The notes below the pieces were generated by a model, which searched no databases, was not told where the DNA came from, and saw only the letters and a list, made by a program, of their open reading frames with translations. Of a stretch of DNA of 64,000 bases, positions 7,772-24,881 are shown piece after piece; position 1 is the first letter of the stretch, and each line of letters begins with the position of its first letter. This DNA comes from Gemmatimonadaceae bacterium. Its GTDB lineage: Bacteria; Gemmatimonadota; Gemmatimonadetes; Gemmatimonadales; Gemmatimonadaceae. The stretch is from the NCBI GenBank assembly GCA_013813715.1, contig JACCRF010000148.1:6562-70561 (forward strand), in the 5' to 3' direction. The translations under genes were made by a program, and so were the position numbers.

Positions 7772-7777
7772 ACGCGA

Positions 7778-9526: not shown

Positions 9527-11010
9527 TGAAGCACATTCTCGCGCTCGACCAGGGCACGACCAGCTCGCGGGCCATCCTCTTCGATCGCGCGGGCGGCATC
9601 GTCGCCGTCGCACAGAAGGAATTCCCACAGATCTTTCCGAAGCCCGGTTGGGTGGAGCACGACCCACGCGACATCTGGTCGACGCAAGCCGGCGTGGCGG
9701 CGGAGGTCCTGCAGAGGGCCGATGTCACAGCCGCAGATGTCGCCGCGATCGGGATCACGAATCAGCGCGAGACCGCAGTCGTCTGGAACCGCGCGACGGG
9801 ACAGCCGATTTGCAACGCCATCGTCTGGCAGGATCGGCGTACTGCATCCATCTGTGACCGGCTGAAGGCTAGGAAGCTGGATCGCGTGATCCGCAGGAAG
9901 ACCGGCCTCGTGATCGATGCGTATTTCTCCGCGACGAAGGTCCAGTGGATTCTTCAGAACGTGAAGGACGCCCGAGCCAAGGCGAAGGCGGGAGAGCTGG
10001 CGTTCGGCACCGTGGACTCATGGCTCGTCTGGAATCTCACGGGCGGCAGGGTTCATGTCACTGATGCCAGTAATGCCTCGCGAACGATGCTCTACAACAT
10101 CGCGAAGGGTGAATGGGACGACGAGCTGCTGGCGATCTTCGGCGTGCCGCGCTCGATGCTGCCTGAGGTGCGGTCGTCGAGCGAGGTGTATGGCGAGAGC
10201 ACGCTCTTGGGCGCCTCCATTCCGATCGCCGGCATTGCCGGCGACCAGCAGGCGGCCCTCTTCGGGCAAGTGTGCACGAAGCCGGGCATGGTGAAGAACA
10301 CGTACGGCACTGGCTGCTTCATGCTCATGAACACGGGCACGAAACCGATCGCCTCGAAGAACAACCTGCTCACGACGGTGGCGTGGCGGATCGGCACCCG
10401 CACCGAGTATGCGCTCGAGGGCAGCATCTTCATCGCGGGCGCCGTTGTGCAGTGGCTGCGTGACGGCCTCGACATGATCCGCTCGTCGGCGGACGTCGAG
10501 GCGCTCGCCGCGAGCGTGCCGGACACCGGCGGCGTCTATCTCGTGCCCGCCTTCGCCGGACTCGGAGCGCCGCACTGGGATCAGTATGCGCGCGGAACAA
10601 TCGTCGGCTTGACGCGAGGCACCACGAAAGCGCACCTGGCGCGAGCCGCACTCGAGGGCATCGCCCTGCAAGTGATGGACGTCCTCAAGGCGATGGAGGC
10701 CGACGCAGGCATCGAGCTCAAGGAGCTCCGCGTAGACGGCGGAGCCTGCGCCAACGATCTCCTCATGCAGTTGCAGGCCGATCTGCTGAGTGTGCCTGTC
10801 GTCCGCCCGAAGGTCGCCGAGACGACCGCGCTGGGTGCGGCCTATCTCGCGGGGCTCGCGGTGGGATACTGGAAGAGTCAGGCCGATATCGCTCGGCAGT
10901 GGCAGGCTGACAGGCGCTTCAAGCCTCGGATGAAACCGGCCGCGAGGAATCAGCTTGCCGCGGGTTGGGTCAAGGCGCTGAGCCGGGCAAAGGGGTGGGA
11001 GGATCCATAA
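9526..11010 (+). CDS. glpK: Glycerol kinase
   Basis: [50 protein letters not shown]; TGATG overlap with glpF. Confidence 0.97.
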
Positions 11011-11178
11011 CGGGATATCGCGACCAGCCAACTTTCCTTTCACTCATTTTACGCTCGTCCACGACGTCACGAGCTGCGCGCCGGCCGCGTGAGCCCCATG
11101 ATGTGCCGCGACTCCTTGGCGCGGACTCGGTGGGAAGGCTGGAGACCAACTCGGGCATGCCGCGCCTCAGCCTCGAAA

Positions 11179-11886
11179 TCACCGCGCGAGCGCCGCGTCG
11201 TGGATCATGGGAGCCGGTTCGGTTGGACGTATCTCCGAAGGAGTAAGGCTGGCGGCTCTCGTCACCGACTCCCGAACAGCGTCGCGAATGCGGTCGAACT
11301 GTCCTGATGCGATCCAGTCCGGCTGCGCCATCCAAGACCCCCCACACGCGACGACGTTCTTGAGAGGAAGATAGCTCTCGAAGTTTGCGGCAGTGAGCCC
11401 ACCGCTGGGATTGAATTCGACACCAGCGAACGGCCCGGACAGCAACTGGAGATACGCGACGCCACCCAGCGTCTCAATCGGCCACAACTTGAGCAGCTTG
11501 AGTCCCGCCTCGAGCGCGGCTTCGATCTCGGTTGCAGTGGCGACTCCGGGGTAAACGGGAACGTCGTATTCGAGGCAGTAGTCAACGACTGCGCGATTGA
11601 ATCCCGGGGATATGACGAACTGTGCTCCAGCATCCCTTACCTGTGCGGCTTGCGCGACGTTGAGCACCGTCCCGGCGCCAGCCAGCATTTCGGGCCGCGT
11701 CTGCGAGATGGCGCGCAGTGATTCCAACGCCCCAGGAGTGCGAAGAGTCACCTCGGCAATCGGCAGCCCGCCGTCCAGCAGCGCGCTCGCGAGCGGCACC
11801 GCTTTCTTCGGGTCGTCGATCACTATCACCGGAATGATGCGCGCGTGCCGGAGCGCTGCTGTCATCGCCGACTGCCGGACGCTCAT
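11179..11886 (-). CDS. eda: KDPG/KHG aldolase
   Basis: EVTLRTP, GAGTV, FVISPG, PGVAT, KLWP, FNPSGG, VACGGSW; SD GGAGG before ATG 11886. Confidence 0.93.
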   Translation of the reverse strand: MSVRQSAMTAALRHARIIPVIVIDDPKKAVPLASALLDGGLPIAEVTLRTPGALESLRAISQTRPEMLAGAGTVLNVAQAAQVRDAGAQFVISPGFNRAVVDYCLEYDVPVYPGVATATEIEAALEAGLKLLKLWPIETLGGVAYLQLLSGPFAGVEFNPSGGLTAANFESYLPLKNVVACGGSWMAQPDWIASGQFDRIRDAVRESVTRAASLTPSEIRPTEPAPMIHDAALAR

Positions 11887-11946
11887 GTCGCCTCCACCTA
11901 TGCGTTGCAGCAAAGGTGCATTCTTTTTGGGGAACCCGCTATTCGC

Positions 11947-12396
11947 TTACGGAGTCGCTGGAATCTGCGCCTCGGCAACCGCGACGTTGAACGGATCGCA
12001 CCAGATGAGGACCCACGTGTACGACGCTCCACCCGGCAGCTGGAAAACGTAGGACTGCGCGCCGCCGTTGCTTTTCAGCGCGGAGACACGTAGCGGGCGC
12101 CCCGTATTCGCGTTGTTGGTCGTGTTCACGTAGACGAACGGACCCGGCACCCCGCTCACCGAGAAATCATCCGAGAAGTCGAGACGCCCCACTCCACCCT
12201 GAACACCGAAGCTTACGGATCCCCGAGCGCTGTGCCCTACGCCGACCCAGCCTCCCGTTACACCGGTACCGGCCGGCGGTTGTGACATCCCCGGCTGAAC
12301 CGGCCTTGCATCCGGCGCCGTCGGAGGTTCCGCGGAGCTGCACCCACTGATTGCAATGGAGGCGGCGACGAGACTGGTCAGGTAGAGCTGGCGCAT
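11947..12396 (-). CDS. DM13-domain lipoprotein
   Basis: Lipobox AISGC; GHSARGSV..DFSVSGVPGPFVY..ALKSNGGAQSY..VLIWCDPFNVAVAEA matches the DM13 pattern. Confidence 0.8.
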   Translation of the reverse strand: MRQLYLTSLVAASIAISGCSSAEPPTAPDARPVQPGMSQPPAGTGVTGGWVGVGHSARGSVSFGVQGGVGRLDFSDDFSVSGVPGPFVYVNTTNNANTGRPLRVSALKSNGGAQSYVFQLPGGASYTWVLIWCDPFNVAVAEAQIPATP

Positions 12397-13133
12397 GCTG
12401 GTTCTCTGCGGGTGTCTACTTGAATAACGTCACTGAGATGCGAGCGGTTCTCGCGCGCCGGCACCGGCCCGGCCTGACGAGCGGCGCCGCCAGCCGGAAT
12501 CCACTCGAGCTGGCGGATCTCCGCCGTCGCCTGAGCGCGCGTCTGGTCGGTGTCCTGCATCACGCCAACGGCCGTGATCGCGGGCGGTTTGCGCTTCCAG
12601 ATGCGCCTGTAGTCGGCGAAGGGGTCGACAGTGTGCTCGCGCCACCGCGTTCGCTCGGCCGCTCCATCGACCCGTATCACCTGCAGCTTGTCGGAGACGA
12701 AGCTCGCGCGCGCATACCCTGACGGCTCGGCATTCCCGAACGTGTAGAAGATGATTCGCGCGGAGTTGCCGAATATCCCGGGCTTCCCGAACACGACGTA
12801 AACGCGGATCGGCGAGTCGTCGAGCTTCTCGCTGCGCATGTCTGCGACCGTCGGCGCATCCAGCACGCGCCACGACCACCTCAGCATGCCGTCCGTCTCG
12901 GCGACTTCTGGAGACAGCTCACGGTAGAACCACGCGGCGCGCCCTGCGCCGTGGATTCTGAGAACGGGGCCCTCACCGTCATTCCTGACCTCGATGTTGG
13001 GCGCGGACTGCCCGCGAACCGCGCGAACCTTCCACCCGGATGGAACGCCGGCGCCTGTTCGTGCGCCGTTCAGGTCGAGTATGACCAGCGGCTCGGACAC
13101 CAGCAACACGAGCAACAGCATCAGGAAGCGCAT
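12378..13133 (-). CDS. DUF3047 family protein
   Basis: Signal peptide; LRWSWRV, DDSPIRVYVVF, DPFADYRRIW, AVGVMQDTDQT motifs. Confidence 0.8.
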   Translation of the reverse strand: MRFLMLLLVLLVSEPLVILDLNGARTGAGVPSGWKVRAVRGQSAPNIEVRNDGEGPVLRIHGAGRAAWFYRELSPEVAETDGMLRWSWRVLDAPTVADMRSEKLDDSPIRVYVVFGKPGIFGNSARIIFYTFGNAEPSGYARASFVSDKLQVIRVDGAAERTRWREHTVDPFADYRRIWKRKPPAITAVGVMQDTDQTRAQATAEIRQLEWIPAGGAARQAGPVPARENRSHLSDVIQVDTRREPACASST

Positions 13134-13137
13134 GAGT

Positions 13138-13866
13138 CTAGAGCAACATGTGCGCGAGCTCTTTCCCGCGCGGCTCAGGAGATCGGTTCGATTTCGGTTC
13201 CATCGTAAGCGCGGCTCCGATCACAGTGCCACCCTCGGCCGGCATTCCCAGTGTGAGAAACACAGGCCTCCCCGGCTCTGATGTGACGGTGGCTCCGCGC
13301 ACCATGCCGTCCGAGCAGATGAACCAGAACTGGTAGGTCTCGCCCGGCGGTGCAGGTGGAAGACCGTGGACCACAACGTTCCAGCGATGCGAGACGTCAT
13401 CAGCGAAGATCAGCAGGCCGCCTTCATGCCCATTCATCGAGATGCTCGCCTGAAGCACGCGCGCCGCCTGGCGCATGACTGAAAGCGAATCGCGAAGGGC
13501 CATCAGCTCGCCGGTTCGAGTGGAGAGTGCTCTCGCGATTCGATCGGACTCACGTCGCTCCGATACGTATAGGCCGAACGCGATCAGAACCGACGCCGCA
13601 AGCGCAATCGGGACAATCCATCGGCGCCACGCGGGCTGCCTGTCTCCGAGAACGTCGCGCAGGATCTGACGACGGAATCCCGGCCGCGGTCTCACCGGCG
13701 GAGCGCCCATCGGCAGCCATGCGAAGTCACGCTCGATCGACTGCACAGCGGCCTTGCATTCTTCGCACCGGCGCAGGTGATCGGCGAAGCTCGTTTCGTC
13801 GCCGGAGTCGAGCGTCCGGGTGACGAAGTCCACGCAATGCTCAACGTACCAGTCGTGTGCGGTCAT
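13138..13866 (-). CDS. Anti-sigma factor: ZAS zinc site, TM helix and RskA-type C-terminal domain
   Basis: HLRRCEEC (HxxxCxxC), TM WIVPIALAASVLIAFGLYV, LPPAPPGETYQFWFI..ALTMEP; ATGA overlap with the sigma stop. Confidence 0.88.
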   Translation of the reverse strand: MTAHDWYVEHCVDFVTRTLDSGDETSFADHLRRCEECKAAVQSIERDFAWLPMGAPPVRPRPGFRRQILRDVLGDRQPAWRRWIVPIALAASVLIAFGLYVSERRESDRIARALSTRTGELMALRDSLSVMRQAARVLQASISMNGHEGGLLIFADDVSHRWNVVVHGLPPAPPGETYQFWFICSDGMVRGATVTSEPGRPVFLTLGMPAEGGTVIGAALTMEPKSNRSPEPRGKELAHMLL

Positions 13867-14513
13867 AGGTTCCAATCCTTCACCGTTGCAAGTGATACAC
13901 GGAGTTTGTCGAACGCGAGTCGAAGACGTGTTTTCACGGTGCCGAGCGGAATCGCGAGATGCTCGGCGATCTCGGATTGCGTCAGGCCCCGAAAATACGC
14001 GAGTAGTATCGCGGTGCGCTGGTCGTCGGGAAGTGCCCCGATCGCGGCTTTCACCGTCTCGTGGACATGCCATCCCGGCTGCGCGGCCTCGTTCGGCTCC
14101 GTCGCCGGGGTGACGTCCTCGTCCAACCCACCGAGCGTCGCGATGAGCTGGGTCTTCATCTGGTGCCGCCGCCGAGCACGGAGCTGGTCAATGGCGCGGT
14201 TTCGCGCGATTCGGAGAAGCCACGGAACGAGATCCGAACCATCGTCGCGCACGAGTCCGACCCGGTTCCACGCGATCTCGAACGTCTGCATCACCACGTC
14301 CTCGGCGTCACCGGCGTCGCTCAGCATGGCGTGGGTCACGCCTAGGAGCCACGGAGTCGCAACGTCGACGAGCTCGACCAGGGCCTGTTCGTCACGAGCG
14401 ACGAGCCGCTGGCAAAGCTCCTTCTCGTGCAGGATGACGAACCGTCCTCCGTCGCCCGCGGATGTGCCGGCTGGCCGGGAACGCTCGCGGGATCGATCGG
14501 CGTCAGCGGACAT
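13863..14513 (-). CDS. ECF RNA polymerase sigma factor (SigK-like)
   Basis: DAEDVVMQTF, WLLRIARNRAIDQLR (region 2), LPDDQRTAILLAYFRGLTQSEIAEHLAIPLGTVKTRLR (region 4). Start codon uncertain. Confidence 0.92.
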   Translation of the reverse strand: MSADADRSRERSRPAGTSAGDGGRFVILHEKELCQRLVARDEQALVELVDVATPWLLGVTHAMLSDAGDAEDVVMQTFEIAWNRVGLVRDDGSDLVPWLLRIARNRAIDQLRARRRHQMKTQLIATLGGLDEDVTPATEPNEAAQPGWHVHETVKAAIGALPDDQRTAILLAYFRGLTQSEIAEHLAIPLGTVKTRLRLAFDKLRVSLATVKDWNL

Positions 14514-15996
14514 ACTTGAACCAGGTTCGGAACAACCCCGCCGCACGCGGCGTCAGCTTCTTTCGGCGCCACGCGTCGGCGGCTTTCCGAATTGCTTCCG
14601 ACTCGGTGGGATACGGGAAGATCGTCTCGCCGATCGCGCCAAGGCCGAGTCGCCGGGTCATCGCCATGGAAAGCTGGGCGATCGTGTCGCCGGCACGGTC
14701 AGCCACGAGTGTCGCGGCGACGATTCGATCCGAACCCTTTCGAAGATGCACGCGCAGAAAGCCGTCCTCGCTTCCATCGAGCCTGGCGCGATCCACATCG
14801 CGGAGAGGGATCGTCAGAGATTCAGTAGGCACACTACCGTTCTTCATGGATTCCCACGACATGCCGACATGCGCGACTTCCGGCTGGGTGTAGGTACACC
14901 AGGGAACGACAAGATTCTCCACCTTGGCACGGCCGAAAAAGAGCGCGTTCCGAATGACCATTCGTGCCTGCGCGTCCGCCGCGTGGGTGAAAGGCGCGCG
15001 GCCTGTGATGTCGCCCGCTGCGTAGATGCGGCGGTTCGAGGTGCGAAGGCGATTATCGGTCATCACTTTGCGGTCGTCGTATTCAACGCCGGCCGCGTCG
15101 AGCCCGAGCCCATCCACGTTGGGGGCGCGTCCGCCCGCAACGAGGATCGCATCGGCATAGGCGGTCTCCGCCACGCCGTTGCGCGTGAAATGGACGACGG
15201 CTGGCGCGCTGCCGACCACCCGATCGATCGTCACGCCGGTCAGCACCGTGACGCCGTCGCGCTCGATGGCCAGTGCGACGACCCTTGCTGCATCGGGATC
15301 GTCCATCGTGAGAATGCGATCTTCGCGCTCCAGAAGCGTCACCTTGCTTCCGAATCGCGCGAATGTCTGGGCGAGCTCCGATCCGATCGCGCCGGCGCCA
15401 ATCACGACGAGCCGACGCGGACATTCCGTCAGCGTAAAGACCGTTTCGTTGGTGAGGTACCTTGCATCTGCGAGCCCGGGTATCGGCGGAACCGCCGGCC
15501 GGCTCCCCGTGGCGATCACGGCGCGACGGAACTCGAGGTCCTGCCCACCAACCGAGGCGCGGTCCTCGCTCCTGAAGGACGCCTGTCCAAAGAACACATC
15601 GACTCCGAGCGACCGAAAGCGATCGGCGCTGTCAACGGCGCTCATGTCTGCGCGAATCCCGCGCATTCTCTTCATCACGGATGCAAAGTCGCCCTGCCCA
15701 GCCACGGCTGGTCCTCCGAAGCGGGCCTGCGCCGTCGTCGCCGCGTTCCACGAACGTCCCGATCGAATGAGTGCCTTCGAAGGAACACAACCGACGTTGA
15801 GGCAATCGCCGCCCATCCAGTGCCGCTCAACGAGTGCGGTCTTGGCGCCGAGTCCGGCGGCGATCGCGGCCGTCACGAGTCCCGCAGTACCGCCGCCGAC
15901 CACGACGAGATGATATCTGGCTTTCGGCTGCGGGTTGACCCACCCGGCAGGATGGACGTTACGAAGCCGTATCGATTCGGAGGCATCATCCGGCAC
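14503..15996 (-). CDS. MerA-like/dihydrolipoamide-dehydrogenase-family FAD disulfide oxidoreductase of unknown substrate
   Basis: GGGTAG FAD motif, redox CLNVGC, GAGAIG, YAAGD, C-terminal PYPTESE; no C-terminal CC pair and no HMA domain; GTG start after GGAGG. Confidence 0.9.
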   Translation of the reverse strand: MPDDASESIRLRNVHPAGWVNPQPKARYHLVVVGGGTAGLVTAAIAAGLGAKTALVERHWMGGDCLNVGCVPSKALIRSGRSWNAATTAQARFGGPAVAGQGDFASVMKRMRGIRADMSAVDSADRFRSLGVDVFFGQASFRSEDRASVGGQDLEFRRAVIATGSRPAVPPIPGLADARYLTNETVFTLTECPRRLVVIGAGAIGSELAQTFARFGSKVTLLEREDRILTMDDPDAARVVALAIERDGVTVLTGVTIDRVVGSAPAVVHFTRNGVAETAYADAILVAGGRAPNVDGLGLDAAGVEYDDRKVMTDNRLRTSNRRIYAAGDITGRAPFTHAADAQARMVIRNALFFGRAKVENLVVPWCTYTQPEVAHVGMSWESMKNGSVPTESLTIPLRDVDRARLDGSEDGFLRVHLRKGSDRIVAATLVADRAGDTIAQLSMAMTRRLGLGAIGETIFPYPTESEAIRKAADAWRRKKLTPRAAGLFRTWFKYVR

Positions 15997-16669
15997 TGGC
16001 GCCTCCGAGTGCACGCCTGCTCGCCCGCGCGCCAACAACTACCACCGCCGCGGTCGCTGCGAGTCCCAACAACAGAACGAGATAGTACTCAGGACCTCTG
16101 CGCATCCCCTCGCTGCCAAGTGTCGCTAGATCGCCCGCGAGCTTTCCGTAGTACACATAAAGCAGCGTCCCGGGAATCATCCCCACCGAACCGAGTACGT
16201 AAGGAAGGAATCCTACTTTCGATATGCCGAGTGCGTAGTTCAGCGCGTTGAAGGGAAAGAGAGGCGAAAGCCGCATGAGCACGATCATCCTGCCGCCCTC
16301 GGCTTCGATCGCCCGATCGATTCGCTGGAATCTCTCGTTGCCGGCGAGCCTCTTCTCGACGATCGGCCTGGCGAGATACCGCGCAACGAGAAACGCCGCT
16401 GTCGAGCCAAGCGTCGCCCCGATGAAGACGTAGATCGTTCCGTGCAGCAAGCCGAAAATCGCGCCTGCCGCGAGCGTCAGAATGAGCCCTGGCACGAACG
16501 CTACTGTGGCGATGATGTAACCGGCGATGAACACGACAGGTGCGAACGGCCCGAGTCCGTCGACCCATTCCGCAAAATTTCTCAAGGGCTCTGCCGCGAA
16601 TCGGCCGACGAGGACAAGCACCGCGATCGTCGCGGCCAGGGCGGCGCCGGCGGCGAGCCATCTTTTCAT
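15986..16669 (-). CDS. TVP38/TMEM64 (DedA superfamily, YdjX/Z-like) membrane protein
   Basis: FVPGLILTLAAGAIFG, GATLGSTAAFLVARY, MRLSPLFPFNALNYALG, GMIPGT. Confidence 0.92.
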   Translation of the reverse strand: MKRWLAAGAALAATIAVLVLVGRFAAEPLRNFAEWVDGLGPFAPVVFIAGYIIATVAFVPGLILTLAAGAIFGLLHGTIYVFIGATLGSTAAFLVARYLARPIVEKRLAGNERFQRIDRAIEAEGGRMIVLMRLSPLFPFNALNYALGISKVGFLPYVLGSVGMIPGTLLYVYYGKLAGDLATLGSEGMRRGPEYYLVLLLGLAATAAVVVVGARASRRALGGASAG

Positions 16670-17097
16670 TGAGTGCGCGAGCGTTGTCCGCGGCGTGCGT
16701 CGATCGAGAGCCTGTCTTCCGGCCGGAACGACCACAACACGAGCACACCGGCGAAGATTACTATCGACGGGTAGAAGAGCACGTTACCTCCCTCGATGAC
16801 CCAGCCATGCGGATCGACAACCGACCGCCAGACACCAAGGAGCGTGGCGGCGGTGATTGCAAGCAGCACGGGATAGGCGTACCGCCGAAGCAGGCCAAGC
16901 GCGACGAGGAAGCCGATCAGGATCTGAAAGACGCCGAAGACTTTCAGGAGTCCGGGTGCGCTGAACAATCCGAGGTAGAACGTCTCCGAGACGAGGACCC
17001 CGTGAGAGACGTTCGCCAGCTTGTCGGCGCCCCAGATCAGCATCAGCGTCCCGATGGACACCCGCAACAGCAGCAAAGAAGCCTCGCGCCGCCTCAC
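16666..17097 (-). CDS. DoxX-like membrane protein
   Basis: LLLLRVSIGTLMLIWGADKL, GVFQILIGFLVALGL; four TM segments. GTG 17097 preferred (SD GGGGGA); ATG 17133 is an alternative. Confidence 0.75.
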   Translation of the reverse strand: MRRREASLLLLRVSIGTLMLIWGADKLANVSHGVLVSETFYLGLFSAPGLLKVFGVFQILIGFLVALGLLRRYAYPVLLAITAATLLGVWRSVVDPHGWVIEGGNVLFYPSIVIFAGVLVLWSFRPEDRLSIDARRGQRSRTQ

Positions 17098-17137
17098 GTT
17101 GGTTCCCCCAGATTGGGTATGAATGTGTGACACATGA

Positions 17138-17165
17138 GTAACGCGCCGAACGCGGCCCCGGTTCT
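17138..17165 (-). promoter_or_regulatory. Putative ECF-type promoter AGAACC-N16-CGTTAC for the leftward operon
   Basis: Motif read on the minus strand, about 40 nt upstream of the DoxX GTG; the operon contains the ECF sigma. Confidence 0.45.
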
Positions 17166-17178
17166 GTCCCGCCCCCGT

Positions 17179-17206
17179 GGATCCGCGTTACGGCTCGCGT
17201 CGTTAT
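17179..17206 (+). promoter_or_regulatory. Putative ECF-type promoter GGATCC-N16-CGTTAT for the rightward operon
   Basis: Same spacing and the same CGTTAY -10 as the opposite promoter; 41 nt upstream of ATG 17248. Confidence 0.45.
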
Positions 17207-17247
17207 TTGGTCTGGCTCCTTCAGTGACTCAATTCAACCGATCCGGG

Positions 17248-17859
17248 ATGCTTGATAATCTGCTGCGACCATTGAAGGATCGCACGCTCGATCCGCTCGC
17301 ACGGGCGCTGGGGCCCGCCGTACACCCGAACGCGCTGTCGATGCTCGGTCTCGGCGCCGGTCTGGCGGCGGCAATGCTGGCACTCCGCGGCGAGTACCCA
17401 GCGGCACTTGGGGTCTGGATACTGAACCGGTTTCTCGATGGCCTCGATGGAGCGGTCGCACGGGCTCGCGGACGTCAAACCGATTTCGGCGGTTACATCG
17501 ACATTCTCGCCGATTTCGTCGTGTATGCGGCGATTCCAGCGGCGATCGTACTTGGAATGCCCTATGACGAGGATGCCTATCGGGCGCTCGTCGCTCTGCT
17601 TGGCTCGTACTACGTGAACGCGGCGTCGTGGATGTATCTCGCTGCGATACTTGAACGCCGGGGACGCGGAGCCGGCGCCCGCGGTGATCAGACGACAGTG
17701 ACAATGCCGGCCGGGCTGATCGGCGGGAGTGAGACCGTTATCGCGTACGTCGTTTTCCTGATGGCCCCGGGCTACGTCGCGAGTCTGTTCGCGGCGTTCG
17801 CCGGATTTGTAGCAGTCACCGTATTCCAGCGACTGGCGTGGGCATTGCGAAACCTTTAA
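17248..17859 (+). CDS. CDP-alcohol phosphotransferase family protein (YnjF-like)
   Basis: Signature DGLDGAVAR-x7-GGYID-x3-D; MLDNLLRPLK start typical of YnjF-like proteins. Confidence 0.9.
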   Translation: MLDNLLRPLKDRTLDPLARALGPAVHPNALSMLGLGAGLAAAMLALRGEYPAALGVWILNRFLDGLDGAVARARGRQTDFGGYIDILADFVVYAAIPAAIVLGMPYDEDAYRALVALLGSYYVNAASWMYLAAILERRGRGAGARGDQTTVTMPAGLIGGSETVIAYVVFLMAPGYVASLFAAFAGFVAVTVFQRLAWALRNL

Positions 17860-17902
17860 TCGCGGCGCCGACGCCTCAACGAATCGAAGCGAGAGTGAGA
17901 GG

Positions 17903-20752
17903 ATGAACAACACGCATTATGCGGGAGCCCTTTGTCTGCTCGCTTTCGCGGGTCTCGGTTCTGTCCCTTCCGCCGTCGGCGCGCAGACTTCGGCGTCGAT
18001 TACCGGTGCAGTGCGATCCGCTCACGGCGAGCCGGTGACCGCCGCAAGGGTTGCCTTCATGCCGCGCGAGCCAGCGAACGCTTCGCGGATCGAGGTCGCA
18101 AGCGATGCCGGCGGGCGATTCCGGCTCGAGATCCCGCCCTCGACTGAAGGGACAGTCGTCTTAACCGCCGTCGGCTTCGAGTCCGCGACAGTCACTCTTC
18201 TGCCGATCATTCCGGGCGCGTCGCGCGCGATCACCGTGGTTCTCACACCGGTGTTCGCCCTCGACGCAGTCACCGTCATCGCCGCGCCGGAGCGTCCGCT
18301 CCTCAATACGAGAGACGCGGTTACTGGCGGCTCCGTCGAGCGGGCTGAGCTGCAGAGTCTTCCCACAGACGCGCGCAACGCGCTCTCGCTCGCGTTCACG
18401 ATTCCGGGAGTGGCGCAGGCAACCGGTTTCTTTGGAGATGCTCCGCCGCTGTCGATCAACGGATCGAACTCGCTCTACACGCAGTACAGCGTCGATGGCC
18501 TCGACAACAACGAGGGGTTCCTTGGAGGGCCGCGCGTCGAGTTTCCGCTCGCTGGGATGCGCCGCCTCAGCGTACTCGCCAGTGGGTACTCCCCGGCCTG
18601 GGGGCGCAGCTCCAACGGAGTCGTCGATGTCGAGACGCGGGCCGGCACAGCACGGTGGAGCGGCGAAGTATTCGGCTACAACAGACCGGGCATACCGTTC
18701 GATGCCGAGCCGCGGTTCGCCGCCGCGGGCGTGGACCCGGATGGGTTTCGCCGGGCGCAAGTCGGCGCAACGATCGGCGGACCCGTGGCACGCGATCGGA
18801 GCTTCATTTTCGCAACGGCGGAGTACTCCAACGAGAGCGAAGACCGGATCGGCTCGACTGCGCAGACTCAGTTCCTTGGAACCGAGATGCGCGACACGTA
18901 CAAGCTGTTCGCGCGCGCCGACCACGGATGGTCGCGCTCGCAGACATCCACGCTGCGGTTCGCGGTGAGCGACGTCAGCCGAGCCGGACAAGGCGGCGGT
19001 ACAGTGGTTCCGGAAGCCGATATCACGACGCGGCGCGTCGGAGCCATTCATTCGCTCACTCACCTGACGGCGCTCCGCGGCGGCAGCGCCAGCAATGCGC
19101 TTTCCGTGCAGCTAGGCACATTTCGATGGTTCTTTCCGCCCACGCGGAGCAGCTTCGCAACGCCGCAGGTCACGATTCTGTCTCGGGATTCGCTGACGGT
19201 CGAGGCCGTCGTCGGATCCAGCAACTTCGTGTTCGACGAGCGAGAAACCCAGATTCAGCTGCGCAACGTGTTCGAGACGCGATTGACGCGAGCCCATTCT
19301 CTTCGCGTCGGCGCGGATGCGACAGCGAGCCGGTTTCGGCTCGACGCATCCGGTACGAACCCGCAGGGCGCGTACGCGGTCATCAACGACGGCAACATCA
19401 ATCCGTCGGGACGCTTCGTGTCGATCCGCGATGTACCGGCTGACGTGCGAGTGCTGAGCTTCACGATCGACGCCAACCCGCAGCGCGTAAACCTGACGCA
19501 GGCCCTGTACTCGGCGTTCATCGAAGATGTCTGGAAGGTGACGCCATCCCTCACCGCCAATGTCGGTCTCCGCTGGGACTACGACGACATCACCTCGCGC
19601 GGAGCGAGCAGCCCGGACCTCGACAACATTCAACCCCGGGTCAGCTTCAACTGGTACGCAACGCCCGCCAGCGTCGTGCGCGGAAGCGCCGGCATCTACG
19701 CTGGCAAGTTTCCGTACGCGGTCTATTCGGACGCCGTCCAGTTCGGCGCCGACGGGAACGCTGTCGTGACTTTCCGCGGGAGCGAGTTCCCCCCGCCGCG
19801 CTTCGGTGAAGGTTTCACTACGAGCCAGCTTTTTGCGTTGCGAGGAATGTTCCCGCCTCGCGAAATTCGCGAGACGTTCGCGCTCGGTCTGGAGCAACCC
19901 GAGAGCCGACAGCTCTCGCTCGGCTACCAGCGTCAGTATGGAAAGTCGTGGGGACTCTCGGTGGACGCCGTATGGGTCGGAACGCGTCACCTTCCGCGCT
20001 CGTGGGATCTCAACCCGAACCTGCGTCCCCGGACGGCCGCCGATTCCCTCAACCAGGCGCCGGAAGCGGGCGATCGTTTCCGTCCGACCGCGGCCGCGGC
20101 CGGATCGTTCAGGCGACTGACGACGACCGAGTCGGGAGGGCGAAGCAGCTACGCGGGATTGCAGACAAACATGCGTCGGCGGGCGAGCGAGAAAACCGGA
20201 ATGGAAGCCACCTGGGTCTGGTCGCGCTCACAAAACGACACGGAAGACATCAACTTCAACGCATCGTACGCCAACGACTTCGATGCCGAGTGGGCCGACG
20301 CGATCAACGACCGCCGCCACAAGCTATCGATTCGCGGGATCCATGAAATTCTGCCGCGACTTCGTGTCACGGGCATCGCTGACTTCCAAACAGGAACTCC
20401 GGTCAACAGGATTGCGTTCTTCCGCGACCTCGACGGCTCGGGCCCGGTGTTCGGCAACGGATTCGTGGGGAATCACGATCGCTTTCCTGGAGTTCCGCGG
20501 AATGGAGAGCGATTGCCGAGCGCCACGCAGATCGCGGCGGCGCTCGATTACGGAGTGCCGGTCGGGCTCGGCAACCTGGCCCTGCGCGCCGACGTCTTCA
20601 ACCTGTTCAACTCTCGCGTCGTGACCGGATTCGCGAATGGAATTCCAGGCGGCGGACCGCGAACCCAGGTGGGGCGGTTTGGCGATCCGATCGTGTTTCA
20701 GAGCGCGGGTCCGTCGCGGCAGCTTCAGTTCTCGGCGCGGTACACGTTCTAG
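17903..20752 (+). CDS. TonB-dependent outer-membrane receptor (Oar-like, with N-terminal carboxypeptidase-regulatory domain)
   Basis: Signal peptide, SITGAVRS..G.PV..A.V, plug region (SINGS..YSVDGLDNN), NVGLRWDY, C-terminal QLQFSARYTF. Confidence 0.92.
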   Translation: MNNTHYAGALCLLAFAGLGSVPSAVGAQTSASITGAVRSAHGEPVTAARVAFMPREPANASRIEVASDAGGRFRLEIPPSTEGTVVLTAVGFESATVTLLPIIPGASRAITVVLTPVFALDAVTVIAAPERPLLNTRDAVTGGSVERAELQSLPTDARNALSLAFTIPGVAQATGFFGDAPPLSINGSNSLYTQYSVDGLDNNEGFLGGPRVEFPLAGMRRLSVLASGYSPAWGRSSNGVVDVETRAGTARWSGEVFGYNRPGIPFDAEPRFAAAGVDPDGFRRAQVGATIGGPVARDRSFIFATAEYSNESEDRIGSTAQTQFLGTEMRDTYKLFARADHGWSRSQTSTLRFAVSDVSRAGQGGGTVVPEADITTRRVGAIHSLTHLTALRGGSASNALSVQLGTFRWFFPPTRSSFATPQVTILSRDSLTVEAVVGSSNFVFDERETQIQLRNVFETRLTRAHSLRVGADATASRFRLDASGTNPQGAYAVINDGNINPSGRFVSIRDVPADVRVLSFTIDANPQRVNLTQALYSAFIEDVWKVTPSLTANVGLRWDYDDITSRGASSPDLDNIQPRVSFNWYATPASVVRGSAGIYAGKFPYAVYSDAVQFGADGNAVVTFRGSEFPPPRFGEGFTTSQLFALRGMFPPREIRETFALGLEQPESRQLSLGYQRQYGKSWGLSVDAVWVGTRHLPRSWDLNPNLRPRTAADSLNQAPEAGDRFRPTAAAAGSFRRLTTTESGGRSSYAGLQTNMRRRASEKTGMEATWVWSRSQNDTEDINFNASYANDFDAEWADAINDRRHKLSIRGIHEILPRLRVTGIADFQTGTPVNRIAFFRDLDGSGPVFGNGFVGNHDRFPGVPRNGERLPSATQIAAALDYGVPVGLGNLALRADVFNLFNSRVVTGFANGIPGGGPRTQVGRFGDPIVFQSAGPSRQLQFSARYTF

Positions 20753-20822
20753 TGCGACACCTGACCGCTGCCCTCTTGGGTTCATCGCGGAACTCCCGGA
20801 TGGTGGAGCCTTGAATTGCGGC

Positions 20823-22034
20823 GTGAAGAACCCAATCTTGCTCGCGGCGGCCCTGTCGAGCTGGGCGTGCAGTGGCGAGCCACCGCCTCCTCACATCTCG
20901 GGCGCTCTTGCATGGGACAGCGTCGAGGCACGTGCTCGCGGGAGCACAGTGCAATGGCGGATGTGGCGCGGCGATCCATCGATCAACGGCTACGTCGACC
21001 GGTGGGTTGCGCCTCGCCTGCGTCAGCGCTACGGGATCATCTTGAAAACGGTAGACGGGCGAGGACCCGAGATCGTGAACCAGTTGACCGTCGAGCGCGA
21101 CGCACGCGCGAACGGTTCGGCTGATCTCGTATGGATCAACGGTGAAACGTTCAACAACCTGCGGAAAGAGGCGCTGCTGTGGGGACCGTGGGCTCACCGT
21201 CTTCCGCACGCACTGTACGTTGACAGTCTGTCCGCGATCGTCATGAGAGACTTCGAGCAGCCGACAGGCGGCTGGGAGTCACCATGGGGGCGGGTACAGT
21301 TCACACTCATATACGATTCGGCGCGTGTATTGAGGCCGCCGCAGACCGTACCCGCGCTCGAGAATTGGATCCGCGCGAATCCGGGACGCTTTACCCACGA
21401 TCAGCAGTTCACCGGCACGACTTTTCTCAAGTCGCTGATGTACGCGCTGGGCGGGGGCGCCGTTGTTTTTCAGGGTGGCTTCAGCGAGGAGCGCTACAGG
21501 GCAGGGAGTCAGCGCGTGTGGAGCTGGCTCGACGGCGTGCGCCCCTCTTTCTGGAGGCGCGGCGCGACATATCCGGCGGGAGTTGCCGACCTTCATCGGT
21601 TGTTCGCCAACGGCGAGGTGGATTTCACGATGTCGTACAACCAGAACGAGGTGATCACTAAGGTCCGGCAGGGCGTGCTGCCGGCGACATCGCGAGCCAT
21701 CGTGCTGCGGGAAGGCAGCATCGCCAACACTCACTATGTCGGGATTCCGTTCAACGCCCGCAACCCGGCGGGAGCCATGGTTGTCGCAAACCTCCTGCTG
21801 TCGCCTGAAGCGCAGCTCGAGAAACTGCGCCCGGAAGTCTGGGCGGACGGAACTGTGCTCGATCTGCGGAAGATGCCGCCGGAACTCAGCGACAGCTTTC
21901 GCGTGCTTATGGACGATCCGCGCGGGGTTCCGCACGACACGCTGCTGCGCTATCAGGTTCCCGAGGTAGCTCCGGAGTACACCGAGCGACTGTCTCGCGA
22001 CTGGAGGTCACGAATTCGCGCGAATACCAGGTGA
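20823..22034 (+). CDS. ABC transporter substrate-binding lipoprotein (YnjB-like)
   Basis: Lipobox SSWAC; ADLVWINGETF, ESPWGRVQFTLIYD, NPGRFT..FTGTTFLK, NTHYVGIPFNA..GAMVVANLLLSPEAQ. TTG 20811 is an alternative start. Confidence 0.88.
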   Translation: MKNPILLAAALSSWACSGEPPPPHISGALAWDSVEARARGSTVQWRMWRGDPSINGYVDRWVAPRLRQRYGIILKTVDGRGPEIVNQLTVERDARANGSADLVWINGETFNNLRKEALLWGPWAHRLPHALYVDSLSAIVMRDFEQPTGGWESPWGRVQFTLIYDSARVLRPPQTVPALENWIRANPGRFTHDQQFTGTTFLKSLMYALGGGAVVFQGGFSEERYRAGSQRVWSWLDGVRPSFWRRGATYPAGVADLHRLFANGEVDFTMSYNQNEVITKVRQGVLPATSRAIVLREGSIANTHYVGIPFNARNPAGAMVVANLLLSPEAQLEKLRPEVWADGTVLDLRKMPPELSDSFRVLMDDPRGVPHDTLLRYQVPEVAPEYTERLSRDWRSRIRANTR

Positions 22035-22876
22035 AAGGGCAACGATTCGGATTGTTCGCGGCGGTTCTCGTCGCCAGTCCGGTCATCGCGGGCATCGTGT
22101 ACTCCGTGCTCGGCGCGATCGGCATTGCTGGTTCTGGTCGCGACGGCCCCTCGCTCGATCACGTCAGCAACGTTATCGCTGACGGTGCGACGTGGACCGG
22201 TCTCATGTGGACCCTCTGGGTGGCGTTCGCTTCGACAGCCCTCGCCCTTGTTCTCGCTATAGTCGTTGCGATGGTTCTGCGCGGGGACCGCCGGATCGAT
22301 CGACTGGCGCGCACGTTCGCAATTGTCCCGCTGCCTTTTCCGCACGTCGTTGCCGCTCTATGTGCGGTACTCTTCCTATCCCAGAGTGGAATGCTCTCCC
22401 GGCTGGCATACAGCGCTGGCATCTACGCATCTCCGGGCGACATGCCGGCGCTGGTATACGATCGCTGGGGAATCGGGCTCATTATCGCGCTGACGTGGAA
22501 GGAGTTTTCGTTCCTCGTCTTCATCGCCTTCTCGGTTCTGGCGCGTAGGGGCGCTATCCTGGAGGAAACGGCGCGAAGCCTGGGTGCGGGAACGATCCGG
22601 ACCTTTCGCGTGGCGACGCTGCCAGCATTGTGGCGCGGGCTGCTGCCCTCGGCGATCGCCGTCTTCACATTTGTGGCCGGCAACTATGAAGCGACAGTTC
22701 TGCTCGCGCCGAGCTCTCCGCTAGCTCTGCCGCTGCTTACAATGGAGAGCCATACTGACCCGTCGCTCGAAAGAAGAGGCGAGGCGTACGTGCTGGTTCT
22801 CATCGCCGCGATCGTGAGTGTGTGCGCCGTAGTGGTTCACGAGTGGGTCGCTAACCGTGTCGAGGTCGTGGAATGA
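22031..22876 (+). CDS. ABC transporter permease (YnjC-like, first half)
   Basis: Six TM segments, EAA loop EETARSLGA; GTGA overlap. Confidence 0.9.
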   Translation: MKGQRFGLFAAVLVASPVIAGIVYSVLGAIGIAGSGRDGPSLDHVSNVIADGATWTGLMWTLWVAFASTALALVLAIVVAMVLRGDRRIDRLARTFAIVPLPFPHVVAALCAVLFLSQSGMLSRLAYSAGIYASPGDMPALVYDRWGIGLIIALTWKEFSFLVFIAFSVLARRGAILEETARSLGAGTIRTFRVATLPALWRGLLPSAIAVFTFVAGNYEATVLLAPSSPLALPLLTMESHTDPSLERRGEAYVLVLIAAIVSVCAVVVHEWVANRVEVVE

Positions 22877-23670
22877 CGGCGACGCGAACTCTCGTTCGCG
22901 GGAGCGTCGTGACCGCACTGGCGGTATCGGCGGTAATTCCAGCCGCGTTTCTTATTGCGTTATCGGTGAGCGAGGAGTGGTTCTATCCGTCGCTTCTGCC
23001 CCGGCGCTGGAGCATCGACCGCTGGGCGCTGGCCGTGCGCACCGGCGAAGTGCTGGCCGGGTCTCTGTGGACGAGCACCGCTCTGGCTCTTGGTGCGGGA
23101 CTGACGTCAGCCGTCGCCGGCCTCGCCGCGGGCCGAGCGATTTCGCGGTTGCGGGGCTGGCGACGCCGGGTCGCCGTGTCGCTCGCATTCCTTCCAGTGG
23201 CCGTCCCGCCGCTGGCGCTCGCCGTCGGGTTGCAATACTCGATGCTTCGCATCGGCTTGGGCGGAAGCTTCGCCGGCGTGATGTTCGCCCATTTCGTGCC
23301 CGCGCTTGGATACGCGACGCTCTTCTTCATCGGTATTTTCGCCGTCTACGACATGCGTGCGGAGGATGAAGCGCGATCACTCGGAGCGAACCAGCGTGAC
23401 GTGCTCAAGCGCGTGACGCTCCCGCTGTTGCGCCGGCCCCTAATCGAGGCGTTCGCCCTGGGTTTTCTGGTTTCCTGGGCGCAGGTTCCGCTCACACTGC
23501 TGATCGGTCAGGGGCTCGTGATAACGTTGCCGGTCGAACTGATGTCGTATGTGAGTGCCGGCCAGGATCACCTCGCGGCGACGGCCGGTCTCATTCTGAC
23601 GATTCCGCCTCTCGTGCTGCTGGCAGTGACCGGAATGGCGGTGCGCCGGCTCAGCGTGGTGGTCGTCTGA
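22873..23670 (+). CDS. ABC transporter permease (YnjC-like, second half)
   Basis: EAA loop EDEARSLGA..VTLPLLR; ATGA overlap. Confidence 0.9.
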   Translation: MTATRTLVRGSVVTALAVSAVIPAAFLIALSVSEEWFYPSLLPRRWSIDRWALAVRTGEVLAGSLWTSTALALGAGLTSAVAGLAAGRAISRLRGWRRRVAVSLAFLPVAVPPLALAVGLQYSMLRIGLGGSFAGVMFAHFVPALGYATLFFIGIFAVYDMRAEDEARSLGANQRDVLKRVTLPLLRRPLIEAFALGFLVSWAQVPLTLLIGQGLVITLPVELMSYVSAGQDHLAATAGLILTIPPLVLLAVTGMAVRRLSVVVV

Positions 23671-24713
23671 ACGACATCGCTCTCCGCCTGAGCGGACTCA
23701 CGCTCCGTTACGACAGCGAGGTCGTCGTCCGGAACATCGACCTCGAGGTGCGACGTGGCGAGCGCTTCGTGCTCGTGGGCCCGTCCGGCGCCGGGAAGAC
23801 GACACTCCTGCGCGCGATCGCCGGATTTGGCGACCTAGTTGAAGGAGGCATCGAGATTTCCGGTCGCGACGTGACCGGGGTCCCAACGGAGAAGCGCAAC
23901 GCCGTCTATATGCATCAGTCGCCCGTCCTCTTTCCCCACCTCTCGGTTTTCGAGAACGTCGCGTTTCCTCTTCGAGTTCGGCGGACACCCGCGAGCGAGA
24001 TAGCCTCGCGCGTTGGGAACTCACTGGACGCGATGCGGCTCACGGGCCTGGCGGCCCGCATTCCACGAACGCTTAGCGGCGGTCAGCGGCATCGCGTTGC
24101 GCTTGCGCGGGCGATCGTGGCGAGGCCGGATCTGCTGCTTCTGGACGAACCGTTGGCTGGCCTTGATCCCGCGCTCAAGAGCGAGGTACGCGAAGCTGTT
24201 CGCGAAGCACACGGGCAGTACGGTCCTGCCTTCGTTCTCGTCACTCACGATTTCGCGGACGCTGCTCTGATCGCAGACCGGATCGGAGTGCTGATCGACG
24301 GCCAACTCGCGCAGGTCGCGACTCCGTCGGAGTTGTTCGCGCGGCCGGCGTCGCTCCGTGTGGCCCGGTTTCTCGCCGTGGCTAACGAGATTCCGGGTCA
24401 CGCCGATGGCGCTGGCGGTTTTCGCTCGGCGCTGGGTACGCTCGGAGGCGTGTGCGACGGCCTGCCATCAGGACCGGCCCTCGCTGTCTTCAGGCCGGCC
24501 GGCGTGCGGATCGGCGGGAATAACGGGTTTCCAGGGCGGGTATCGGCAATTCGCGTTCGTCCCGAGCACACCACGATGATGATGTCGACGGTTGTAGGCC
24601 CGATGGAGGTCGCACTGCCGGCGAGCTTCGAAGGTCCTTCAAAAGGCGACGAGCTGACGATGTCGCTCGATCCTCGGCAGGTCGTCGTGTTCCCATTGGA
24701 CGCGAGAGAGTAA
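23667..24713 (+). CDS. ABC transporter ATP-binding subunit (YnjD/PotA-like, TOBE domain); probable CTG start
   Basis: GPSGAGKT, LSGGQ, LLLLDEP, VTHD. The N-terminal strand LRLSGLTLRY..VRNIDLEV lies upstream of the first canonical start (23748), which points to CTG 23667. Confidence 0.9.
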   Translation: MNDIALRLSGLTLRYDSEVVVRNIDLEVRRGERFVLVGPSGAGKTTLLRAIAGFGDLVEGGIEISGRDVTGVPTEKRNAVYMHQSPVLFPHLSVFENVAFPLRVRRTPASEIASRVGNSLDAMRLTGLAARIPRTLSGGQRHRVALARAIVARPDLLLLDEPLAGLDPALKSEVREAVREAHGQYGPAFVLVTHDFADAALIADRIGVLIDGQLAQVATPSELFARPASLRVARFLAVANEIPGHADGAGGFRSALGTLGGVCDGLPSGPALAVFRPAGVRIGGNNGFPGRVSAIRVRPEHTTMMMSTVVGPMEVALPASFEGPSKGDELTMSLDPRQVVVFPLDARE

Positions 24714-24881
24714 CGGCTTCGGGGGAAGGCCAACCGAAAACGTCACTGGTGAGAGACGCCAGAAGCATACTCGCGCCGGTGCCTCCGTCTTCTCTAGCCC
24801 GTGTATTTCTTGGTTCCGTCGTTCGGCACTCCTTTCGAAGCGGGGGGCCGAGCTCCGAGCCAATCTGTATATTCAAGAACG

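Follow-up and report, generated by a model that had tools for sequence, protein, structure and literature searches.

Do two divergent operons lying back to back in a bacterial genome form one functional system and, if so, what might this system be for? The question is raised by a locus in a Gemmatimonadaceae genome, at positions 11947-24713 of a 64-kb stretch of contig JACCRF010000148.1 (the whole stretch analysed, referred to as the window). Here genes for membrane and redox proteins, together with an extracytoplasmic function (ECF) sigma factor and its anti-sigma factor, are transcribed away from genes for a cytidine diphosphate (CDP)-alcohol transferase, a TonB-dependent receptor and an ATP-binding cassette (ABC) importer of the Escherichia coli Ynj type. 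We report that the two arms are conserved together and conclude that the locus is a real, conserved, uncharacterised system. We tentatively suggest, as a possible rather than a probable reading, that it constitutes one accessory stress-regulated membrane system made up of a redox/lipid core, a supply-and-attachment arm and an embedded ECF/ZAS switch.

Gene content and co-conservation of the two arms

The genes were assigned using the Pfam and NCBIfam profile libraries with curated bit-score cut-offs and a listing of open reading frames (ORFs), and start codons were refined with homolog alignments and junction sequences. This confirmed a 13-gene cassette in two tightly packed divergent arms, as listed in the sequence-only reading (13 genes, two arms, overlaps or short gaps), which had given the left arm with correct content and in the order of transcription, i.e. 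the reverse of the coordinate order. In this order the minus arm encodes DoxX, VTT/TVP38, a PRK06370.1-3 flavoprotein, the ECF sigma factor, an anti-sigma factor with ZAS and RskA_C domains, DUF3047 and a DM13 lipoprotein, and the plus arm a CDP-OH_P_transf protein, a TonB-dependent receptor, a YnjB-family substrate-binding protein (SBP), two permeases and an ATPase with a TOBE_2 domain. The junctions within the arms are overlaps of 4-19 nt (several of the ATGA type) or gaps of at most 70 nt, and after start correction the divergent intergenic promoter region comprises 150 bp (17098-17247). The genes are as follows.

11947-12396, minus strand: DM13-domain lipoprotein (PF10517, 34.8 bits) with a signal peptide and the lipobox ISGC; last gene of the minus arm
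12378-13133, minus strand: DUF3047 protein (PF11249, 97.3 bits) with an N-terminal signal or anchor, predicted to be an extracytoplasmic beta jelly-roll
13138-13866, minus strand: anti-sigma factor (PF10099, NF052375) with the ZAS motif H-x3-C-x2-C (HLRRCEEC), one transmembrane (TM) helix and an extracytoplasmic RskA_C domain; its ATG at 13866 overlaps the sigma stop codon (ATGA)
13863-14513, minus strand: ECF sigma factor with sigma-2 and sigma-4, SigK/PRK12519-like; ATG at 14513, alternative start GTG at 14546
14503-15996, minus strand: class I FAD/NAD(P)H disulfide reductase, PRK06370.1-3 (the flavoprotein); start GTG at 15996, ORF extending to TTG at 16038
15986-16669, minus strand: VTT/TVP38 protein (DedA, COG0398), YdjX-like (PF09335, 95.7 bits); start ATG at 16669, overlapping the DoxX stop codon (ATGA), ORF extending to 16735
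16666-17097, minus strand: DoxX-family membrane protein (PF07681), first gene of the minus arm; start GTG at 17097, preceded by the Shine-Dalgarno sequence GGGGGA, ORF extending to 17133
17248-17859, plus strand: YnjF-like CDP-alcohol phosphatidyltransferase (PF01066), 203 amino acids (aa), about 6 TM helices; start ATG at 17248
17903-20752, plus strand: TonB-dependent outer-membrane receptor (CarboxypepD_reg, Plug and OMP_b-brl_4 domains)
20823-22034, plus strand: YnjB-family substrate-binding lipoprotein (NF008633, 400.7 bits vs a cut-off of 203); start GTG at 20823
22031-22876, plus strand: ABC permease 1, matching the N half of YnjC
22873-23670, plus strand: ABC permease 2, matching the C half of YnjC
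23667-24713, plus strand: ABC ATPase, YnjD-like with TOBE_2; start CTG at 23667, overlapping the permease stop codon (CTGA)

Conservation was studied in 25 genomes of the same genus, in 201 evenly sampled Gemmatimonadota genomes and in 80 SBP-centred loci across phyla. Within the genus a YnjB-type SBP is present in 3 of the 25 genomes, and both arms are side by side in all three. Among the 201 Gemmatimonadota genomes eight have a YnjF-like gene and seven an SBP, the seven being a subset of the eight; in 7/7 SBP genomes the two genes share a contig and lie about 4 kb apart or less, in the order SBP-permease-permease-ATPase-YnjF or YnjF-receptor-SBP. All Gemmatimonadota loci examined have an ortholog of the receptor (50-85% identity) next to the cassette. 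As to the minus arm, the flavoprotein, which is above the NF004991 cut-off in 36/201 genomes, adjoins the Ynj cassette in five of the seven importer genomes (four above this cut-off, and G129 below it). Using Fisher tests without phylogenetic correction, both its presence somewhere in the genome (7/7 Ynj genomes, p=0.003) and that of DUF3047 (29/201 genomes overall, 5/7 Ynj genomes, p=8e-4) are associated with the importer.

In a distant phylum the genes of both window arms are joined in a single operon: a metagenome-assembled genome (MAG) of Spirochaetales (L042) has the tight same-strand run FA_hydroxylase-ATPase-SBP-permease-permease-TVP38-flavoprotein-DUF3047-YnjF. YnjF, TVP38 and the flavoprotein are also partners in Symbiobacteriaceae, Cohnella, Nanopelagicales, Aeromonadaceae, Vicinamibacteria and E. 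coli, and YnjF-centred neighbourhoods (Gemmatimonadetes T265, a Vicinamibacteria MAG and another long contig) agree with this. Because the YnjF-linked loci scatter over at least five clades of the SBP tree, on both sides of its deepest split, the YnjF-SBP link is either ancient or repeatedly re-formed. Neighbour clustering around the 80 SBP loci gave no other strongly recurrent partner except an APH kinase and FA_hydroxylase. The suggestion in the sequence-only reading that the two arms belong together, to be given up if they were not co-conserved, has thus survived the hidden Markov model and gene-neighbourhood analysis at genus and phylum level and across phyla.

Some observations concern the cassette and its variants. 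A membrane FA_hydroxylase-family (di-iron) enzyme lies beside Ynj-type loci in three phyla (L013, 15618-16562; L042, 8139-8921; L073, 2483-3379; L091, 10730-11338). The locus L098 (G109, 6574-14133) is a variant without the ABC importer, in which the flavoprotein gene is divergent from a TonB receptor gene (51% identical to that of the window); the receptor gene is followed by genes for a rhodanese-like protein with the active-site Cys replaced, a 37%-identical YnjF-like protein and a tandem universal stress protein. In L005 (G007) the DUF3047 ortholog aligns in two frames at ~8677, i.e. a frameshift or sequencing error, and the DM13 ortholog of G007 is 68% identical. Where the homologs of the ATPase gene start, none of the codons ATG, GTG and TTG is present in it, and its start overlaps the permease stop codon (window 23660-23672) as CTGA in the window and in G007 (L005, ~18615), ATGA in L009 (7630-7650) and GTGA in G020; the corresponding site in L007 is at ~3290. 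Since the first canonical start (23748) would delete the conserved N-terminus, and since the overlaps in relatives are ATGA and GTGA, CTG is the likely start codon, probably used via translational coupling. The ATPase gene is followed by a gene for a Ser/Thr protein kinase with C-terminal TPR repeats (24801-27275), and large Pkinase genes are also present near the cassette in L089 and L013.

Promoter motifs and the embedded sigma/anti-sigma pair

Motifs of the ECF promoter type are present ahead of both arms and ahead of the DM13 gene.

12424-12451, minus strand: AGAACC-N16-CGTTAT, 28 nt upstream of the DM13 ATG, in the non-conserved 3' tail of the DUF3047 gene
17138-17165, minus strand: AGAACC-N16-CGTTAC, ahead of doxX and the minus arm; kept in L009 and G020
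17179-17206, plus strand: GGATCC-N16-CGTTAT, ahead of the transferase gene and the plus arm

In the 64-kb window there are three copies of the pattern RGAWCC-N16-CGTTAY, all within the locus and correctly placed, compared with 0.02 copies expected from shuffled sequences, and in the 3.7-Mb genome there are five; a scan of the locus for sigma-70-type promoters found none. Counterparts of the plus-arm motif are GGATCC-N16-CGTTAG in L009 and CGATCC-N16-CGTACT in G020, and a homologous GGAACC-N16-CGTTAC precedes DM13 in G007. Motifs of the same type are also found elsewhere: before MsrA and DM13 in G007, before DUF3047 and the next gene in L013, before the gene following an ECF sigma gene in L012, and in L094 before a DUF3047-DUF547-TVP38-flavoprotein operon beside an ECF sigma gene.

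The protein pair agrees with an ECF/ZAS-RskA system, having a sigma factor with sigma-2 and sigma-4 only and, downstream and coupled, an anti-sigma factor with H-x3-C-x2-C, a TM helix and RskA_C; no NCBIfam equivalog or subfamily cut-off was reached by the sigma factor, which passed only the generic sigma70-ECF superfamily model TIGR02937. With three matching motifs where 0.02 would be expected by chance, it is plausible that the embedded sigma factor controls the locus. Its ortholog in G020 is 78% identical. G007, which belongs to the same genus, is without the sigma/anti-sigma pair both at the locus and elsewhere (best match 38%), and because of this we read the pair as a lineage-specific insert. 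The sequence-only reading had described a redox-type sigma/anti-sigma pair embedded in the locus; the pair is indeed embedded and fits the three motifs, but it would not be a constant part of the cassette. In the sigma-less G007 the motif is present on the redox arm and was not found before the transferase gene. Our reading is that the redox core is recurrently under ECF control and that the importer arm may have been recruited into the regulon in the sigma-bearing cassettes.

Two observations on relatives belong here. A secreted MsrA (GGCFWCM) replaces DoxX as the first gene of the redox arm in two sigma-less relatives (L005, i.e. G007, 11330-12040; L010, 140-800). In L091 (11736-15545) an ECF sigma gene with an NrsF anti-sigma gene, and a bufferin-type operon (BufA1, MbnB-like, HvfC_N, DoxX), lie beside the Ynj/TVP38/flavoprotein cassette.

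Possible function and rival explanations

The flavoprotein is above the NF004991 (PRK06370.1-3) cut-off (672.8 bits vs 620). It has the redox pair CLNVGC, a basic amphipathic C-terminal tail and a MerA-like Tyr (in FPYPTESE) where E3/GR enzymes have His, and its nearest solved relatives in the PDB are mercuric reductases (MerA) and E3 enzymes. Identification as MerA itself was rejected (TIGR02053, 383.5 bits, below 454.45; the protein is without a C-terminal Cys pair and the locus without mer genes), as was that of TVP38 as the UndP flippase DedA, UptA (NF052604, 20 bits vs a cut-off of 250). COG0398 DedA proteins (YdjX/YdjZ/TVP38) are putative phospholipid scramblases, and their commonest fusion partner is a pyridine nucleotide-disulfide oxidoreductase (Todor et al. 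2023, PMC10127716). DUF3047 is part of the conserved redox core, not of the sigma module; a fold search with its AlphaFold (AF2) model (pLDDT 92.7) returned weak, generic jelly-roll matches (CBM/GH11-like, TM-score about 0.5) and no functional lead.

On the plus arm, the YnjF-like protein has an intact DGxxDGxxARx8GxxxDxxxD catalytic motif and is below every NCBIfam equivalog cut-off (archaetidylinositol-phosphate synthase, the best, 72.9 vs 180; PssA, 43 vs 107; Pcs, 19.9 vs 400); the best profile of E. coli YnjF is the same one, likewise below its cut-off. As the fifth and most divergent of the five CDP-OH transferases encoded by the genome, it is, judged by its sequence, not a housekeeping enzyme. 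The subfamily is small, with 141 clusters at 50% identity (E<=1e-30) among 1.84 billion representatives. In one protein (P0246, 572 aa) a YnjF-like domain (54% identity) is called together with a flavin-monooxygenase-like domain, and in another (P0241, 1140 aa) YnjF and the TonB receptor are called as one protein, probably by read-through of the short gap.

The SBP has no match in a sequence search of the PDB. Structure prediction, proposed in the sequence-only reading, gave a confident AF2 model (pLDDT 93.9) with a cluster-D SBP fold, but the fold search places the protein in the broad PotD/FbpA/AfuA/PhnS cluster (PhnS, PotD, AfuA and FbpA as structural neighbours; 11-18% identity, TM-score about 0.6). 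Grouping with characterised polyamine or thiamine binders would have told against that reading, and the SBP groups with no characterised polyamine, thiamine or phosphonate binder. Its conserved positions are rich in Trp/Phe and Asp/Glu/Asn/Gln, a make-up that would suit cationic or sugar-like ligands and that does not discriminate between these. For the permeases and the ATPase the best NCBIfam families are PotABC, PhnTUV and ThiPQ, and a search of 11000-25500 against Rfam (E<=1) returned nothing, neither a thiamine pyrophosphate (TPP) nor any other riboswitch. In 7-8 mostly alphaproteobacterial loci a small-molecule kinase of the APH family (PF01636) replaces YnjF directly upstream of the SBP (loci with this kinase are L022, L045, L049, L053, L058, L060, L078 and L082). 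Since YnjF and the APH kinase are alternative partners of the SBP and both act on a hydroxyl, this suggests that the transported compound is an alcohol; the direction of transport, which we infer from the SBP-dependent architecture, would be import.

The strongest contextual clue points beyond the thiol/disulfide chemistry of the sequence-only reading, to organo-arsenic or selenium ("arsenosugar-type") pathways. In L094 the DUF3047-DUF547-TVP38-flavoprotein run (flavoprotein 56% identical to that of the window) precedes genes for a radical-SAM~ArsM fusion and a PHO4-like transporter and, further on, for proteins above the TIGR04283 and TIGR04282 cut-offs (named arsenosugar biosynthesis glycosyltransferases by NCBI). 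One operon in G046 combines TIGR04282-like, TVP38, flavoprotein, TIGR04283, DUF547, radical-SAM~ArsM and PHO4-like genes, and G028 and G162 are similar. The Ynj cassette of Gemmatimonadetes T265 is flanked by ArsM (355.6 vs 263) and a TIGR03169 "Nterm_to_SelD" reductase, and in Cohnella a TIGR03169 reductase gene follows TVP38 and the flavoprotein. Within Gemmatimonadota, where the association was tested, a PRK06370-like flavoprotein (E<=1e-100) is present in 61/66 genomes with TIGR04283 compared with 27/135 without it (p=4e-24), at a distance of 0.4-2 kb from TIGR04283 in at least 25 genomes. The 27 include the seven Ynj genomes, none of which has TIGR04283 (0/7, by itself non-significant, p=0.10). 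ArsM is near-universal in the phylum (156/201) and hence uninformative. Around the same core, the importer arm and the "arsenosugar-type" biosynthetic arm show a complementary distribution, which makes the idea of an unusual lipid concrete enough for a test by mass spectrometry. Because the TVP38-flavoprotein pair sits in arsenosugar-type operons whose genes are missing from the importer genomes, the importer may supply from outside what these operons make inside.

Taking these data together, the system can be pictured in three layers, with gene content, co-conservation and promoter motifs as the observed part and biochemical steps that we infer throughout. A redox/lipid core would consist of TVP38, the cytoplasmic PRK06370-type disulfide reductase and periplasmic DUF3047, extended by DoxX and DM13; the TonB receptor, the YnjBCD-type ABC importer and the YnjF-like transferase would provide supply and attachment; and the ECF sigma and ZAS/RskA anti-sigma factors would drive both arms and DM13 from three promoters of the same type. 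Envelope or thiol-reactive stress would free the sigma factor, upon which the receptor and the importer would take up a scarce exogenous polar compound bearing a free hydroxyl. YnjF would join this compound to CDP-diacylglycerol, generating an unusual phospholipid that TVP38 would redistribute across the inner membrane, while the flavoprotein would maintain either a redox centre in the head group or a partner thiol in the reduced state, and DUF3047, DM13 and DoxX would work on the periplasmic/membrane side. The head group would most likely be a sulfur-, selenium- or arsenic-containing sugar-like compound, because sister genomes build the TVP38-flavoprotein pair into arsenosugar-type operons and the window cassette is without those genes.

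Several findings weigh against this model. The motif (GGAAC-N16-CGTT type) is generic for ECF sigma factors and, as G007 keeps such motifs without the cassette sigma, another sigma factor could read them. About 70 of the 80 YnjB-family loci hold ABC genes only, and the Fisher tests noted above are uncorrected for phylogeny. The specificity of the SBP pocket is unreadable, its structural neighbours binding polyamines, phosphonate, sugar phosphates or iron, and CDP-alcohol transferases can also make soluble phosphodiesters. There are no arsenic or selenium genes in the window locus, the ArsM gene of the genome is on another contig, the lack of TIGR04283 in the Ynj genomes does not reach significance by itself, and the "arsenosugar" names in NCBIfam are computational, neighbourhood-based inferences. 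Moreover, a literature search found no functional study of the ynj/ydj genes, YnjB or YnjF, of DUF3047, or of arsenosugar together with DedA or phosphatidyltransferase.

Two other explanations are still in contention. The locus might serve salvage or detoxification of organo-metalloids (As/Se) without a new membrane lipid, the importer taking up methylated or ribosylated As/Se compounds from other microbes, the flavoprotein reducing them, TVP38 moving the compounds or their conjugates, and YnjF making a soluble phosphodiester (like DIPP synthases) or having a side role. This would account for TVP38 and the flavoprotein inside ArsM/radical-SAM/TIGR04282/TIGR04283 operons, for ArsM and the SelD-N-terminal-type reductase beside the Ynj cassette in T265, for mercuric reductases as the closest solved relatives of the flavoprotein (with the MerA-type Tyr kept), and for the mer and copper-peptide genes neighbouring in L090, L091 and L094. 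We nevertheless consider it unlikely: as a CDP-alcohol phosphatidyltransferase, YnjF has just the minimal six helices, and its coupling to the importer is strict; COG0398 DedA proteins have so far been tied to lipids (PMC10127716), and ars and sel genes are missing from the window locus itself. A similarly low probability is given to repair of oxidative or thiol stress in the envelope, where the ZAS anti-sigma factor would sense oxidants, the Ynj arm would import a low-molecular-weight thiol or its precursor, and the NAD(P)H-driven flavoprotein, TVP38 and DoxX would pass reducing power or thiol to the periplasm for DM13, DUF3047 and MsrA-type proteins. The ZAS motif, MsrA in the place of DoxX in G007 and L010, the AhpC/TSA, CMD (AhpD-like), thioredoxin-like and ergothioneine genes beside relatives in L021, L090 and L092, and YnjA (CMD) and YnjE (rhodanese) in the E. 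coli cluster all fit such a function; it leaves the strictly coupled CDP-alcohol transferase without a role, and these contexts could merely reflect stress islands. Ergothioneine genes are found beside the Ynj-YnjF cassette in the Vicinamibacteria MAG L090 (10696-15410 and 17566-19847; EgtB, EgtD, EgtA and an EgtUV-like transporter among the set) and beside DUF3047 and a disulfide reductase in the NC10 MAG L092 (2585-8252). The link to ergothioneine was set aside, since the NC10 reductase is not an ortholog (just 31% identity) and the EgtB/EgtD homologs of the window's genome are on another contig (C135:26156-28295).

The remaining two explanations are disfavoured. That two unrelated operons merely abut, one for an ordinary thiamine/polyamine-type importer and a housekeeping phospholipid synthase, the other an ECF-regulated redox operon, is in our view very unlikely, given that genes of both arms form one spirochaete operon, that the partnership recurs across phyla and that the same promoter motif is present on both sides. 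Nor does it agree with the lack of any Rfam match, TPP riboswitch included, or with a YnjF that reaches no equivalog cut-off and whose gene, accessory and rare (8/201), is found in a genome with four other CDP-OH transferases. In its favour are the PotABC, PhnTUV and ThiPQ families as best matches of the permeases and ATPase, the predominance of YnjB-family loci without other genes, and the TCDB-style placement of YnjBCD, which we take to be with thiamine or polyamine importers. Cell-surface signalling of the FecI/FecR/FecA type, in which the TonB receptor would sense a ligand and signal through the anti-sigma factor to the ECF sigma factor, is extremely improbable even though sigma, anti-sigma and receptor genes share one locus. 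It was rejected on domain content, since the domain scan found no STN signalling domain (the receptor N-terminus is CarboxypepD_reg) and a ZAS/RskA-type instead of a FecR-type anti-sigma factor; in addition, the receptor accompanies the cassette in genomes without the sigma pair.

The proposal of one stress-regulated membrane system is thus the reading that we prefer, and the interpretation offered by the sequence-only reading is partly supported. A more specific version, which we regard as quite unlikely, though less so than the two disfavoured alternatives, would be that YnjF-type transferases provide the missing synthase activity for arsenosugar-type (or selenium/sulfur sugar) phospholipids, that the TVP38-flavoprotein-DUF3047 core flips these and keeps them reduced, that the head group comes either from the internal ArsM/radical-SAM/TIGR04282/TIGR04283 pathway or from scavenging by the TonB receptor and YnjBCD, and that the ECF/ZAS switch turns the system on. 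If true, this would reveal a new class of bacterial phospholipids and fill a gap in the environmental cycling of arsenic or selenium. The ydj/ynj genes, the COG0398 DedA proteins (relatives of human TMEM41B and VMP1), DUF3047 and the PRK06370-type flavoproteins are widespread and without assigned function, and here they are seen as one regulated unit. A dedicated sigma/anti-sigma pair with three candidate promoters, and an outer-membrane receptor and an SBP for ligand capture, provide experimental handles, so that the role of the E. coli ydj/ynj genes and of COG0398 DedA proteins becomes directly testable.

Comparison with known systems

The Ydj/Ynj gene partnership and the DedA-reductase pairing were already known as uncharacterised associations; new in this variant are the TonB receptor, the embedded ECF/ZAS switch with three candidate promoters, and the DoxX and DM13 additions. 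The closest known locus is E. coli b1750-b1758 (ydjX-ydjY-ydjZ-ynjA-ynjB-ynjC-ynjD, ynjE and the convergent ynjF), which likewise holds YdjX/YdjZ, YnjB, YnjC, YnjD and YnjF homologs in one neighbourhood. BLASTP against E. coli K-12 gave 41% identity of TVP38 to YdjX and 28% to YdjZ, 38% of the SBP to YnjB, 36% of the ATPase to YnjD and 31% (over 201 aa) of the transferase to YnjF, and the two permeases correspond to the N and C halves of YnjC. The likeness to ydjXYZ-ynjABCD with ynjE and ynjF drawn in the sequence-only reading therefore holds, and so do the differences that it named, i.e. the split YnjC, the added receptor and the missing YnjA and YnjE. In related loci the permease is split in 34 and fused in 24. 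CMD (YnjA), rhodanese (YnjE) and YdjY domains were not found in 11947-24713 by Pfam scan or by BLASTP against the E. coli locus, and they appear to be lineage-specific accessories. Apart from the split permease, the window locus differs in having TOBE_2 on the ATPase, the TonB receptor, the PRK06370-type flavoprotein, DoxX, DUF3047 and DM13. Control differs as well: in E. coli ydjXYZ-ynjABCD and ynjE are directly activated by FNR (PMC3688515) and ynjABCD is mildly induced on BaeR overproduction (PMC2731931), whereas the window locus would, to judge from its sequence, be controlled by the embedded ECF/ZAS pair.

The adjacent, translationally coupled TVP38 and reductase genes represent the same two families as the DedA-reductase pairs (PMC10127716), but they are separate genes and not a fusion, and are located in a larger cassette with an importer and a lipid transferase. 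With SigK/RskA-type ECF systems the locus shares an ECF sigma gene followed by a coupled gene for an anti-sigma factor with ZAS, TM helix and RskA_C, and a putative promoter of the GGAAC/CGTT type ahead of the operon; it differs in that the sigma gene is the fourth in the operon instead of the first, and in the target genes. Phosphatidylcholine synthase (Pcs) follows the logic proposed here, in that an imported head-group alcohol (choline) is condensed directly with CDP-diacylglycerol, but Pcs genes are not known to share an operon with a dedicated importer of the YnjB type, and the YnjF-like proteins are far below the Pcs models. Finally, the "arsenosugar-type" cassettes (ArsM, ArsS-type radical SAM, TIGR04282, TIGR04283) of Gemmatimonadota hold TVP38 and flavoprotein orthologs (51-56% identity), often with DUF3047 or DUF547 and an ECF sigma gene nearby; where these have biosynthetic genes, the window locus instead has the receptor, the importer and YnjF.

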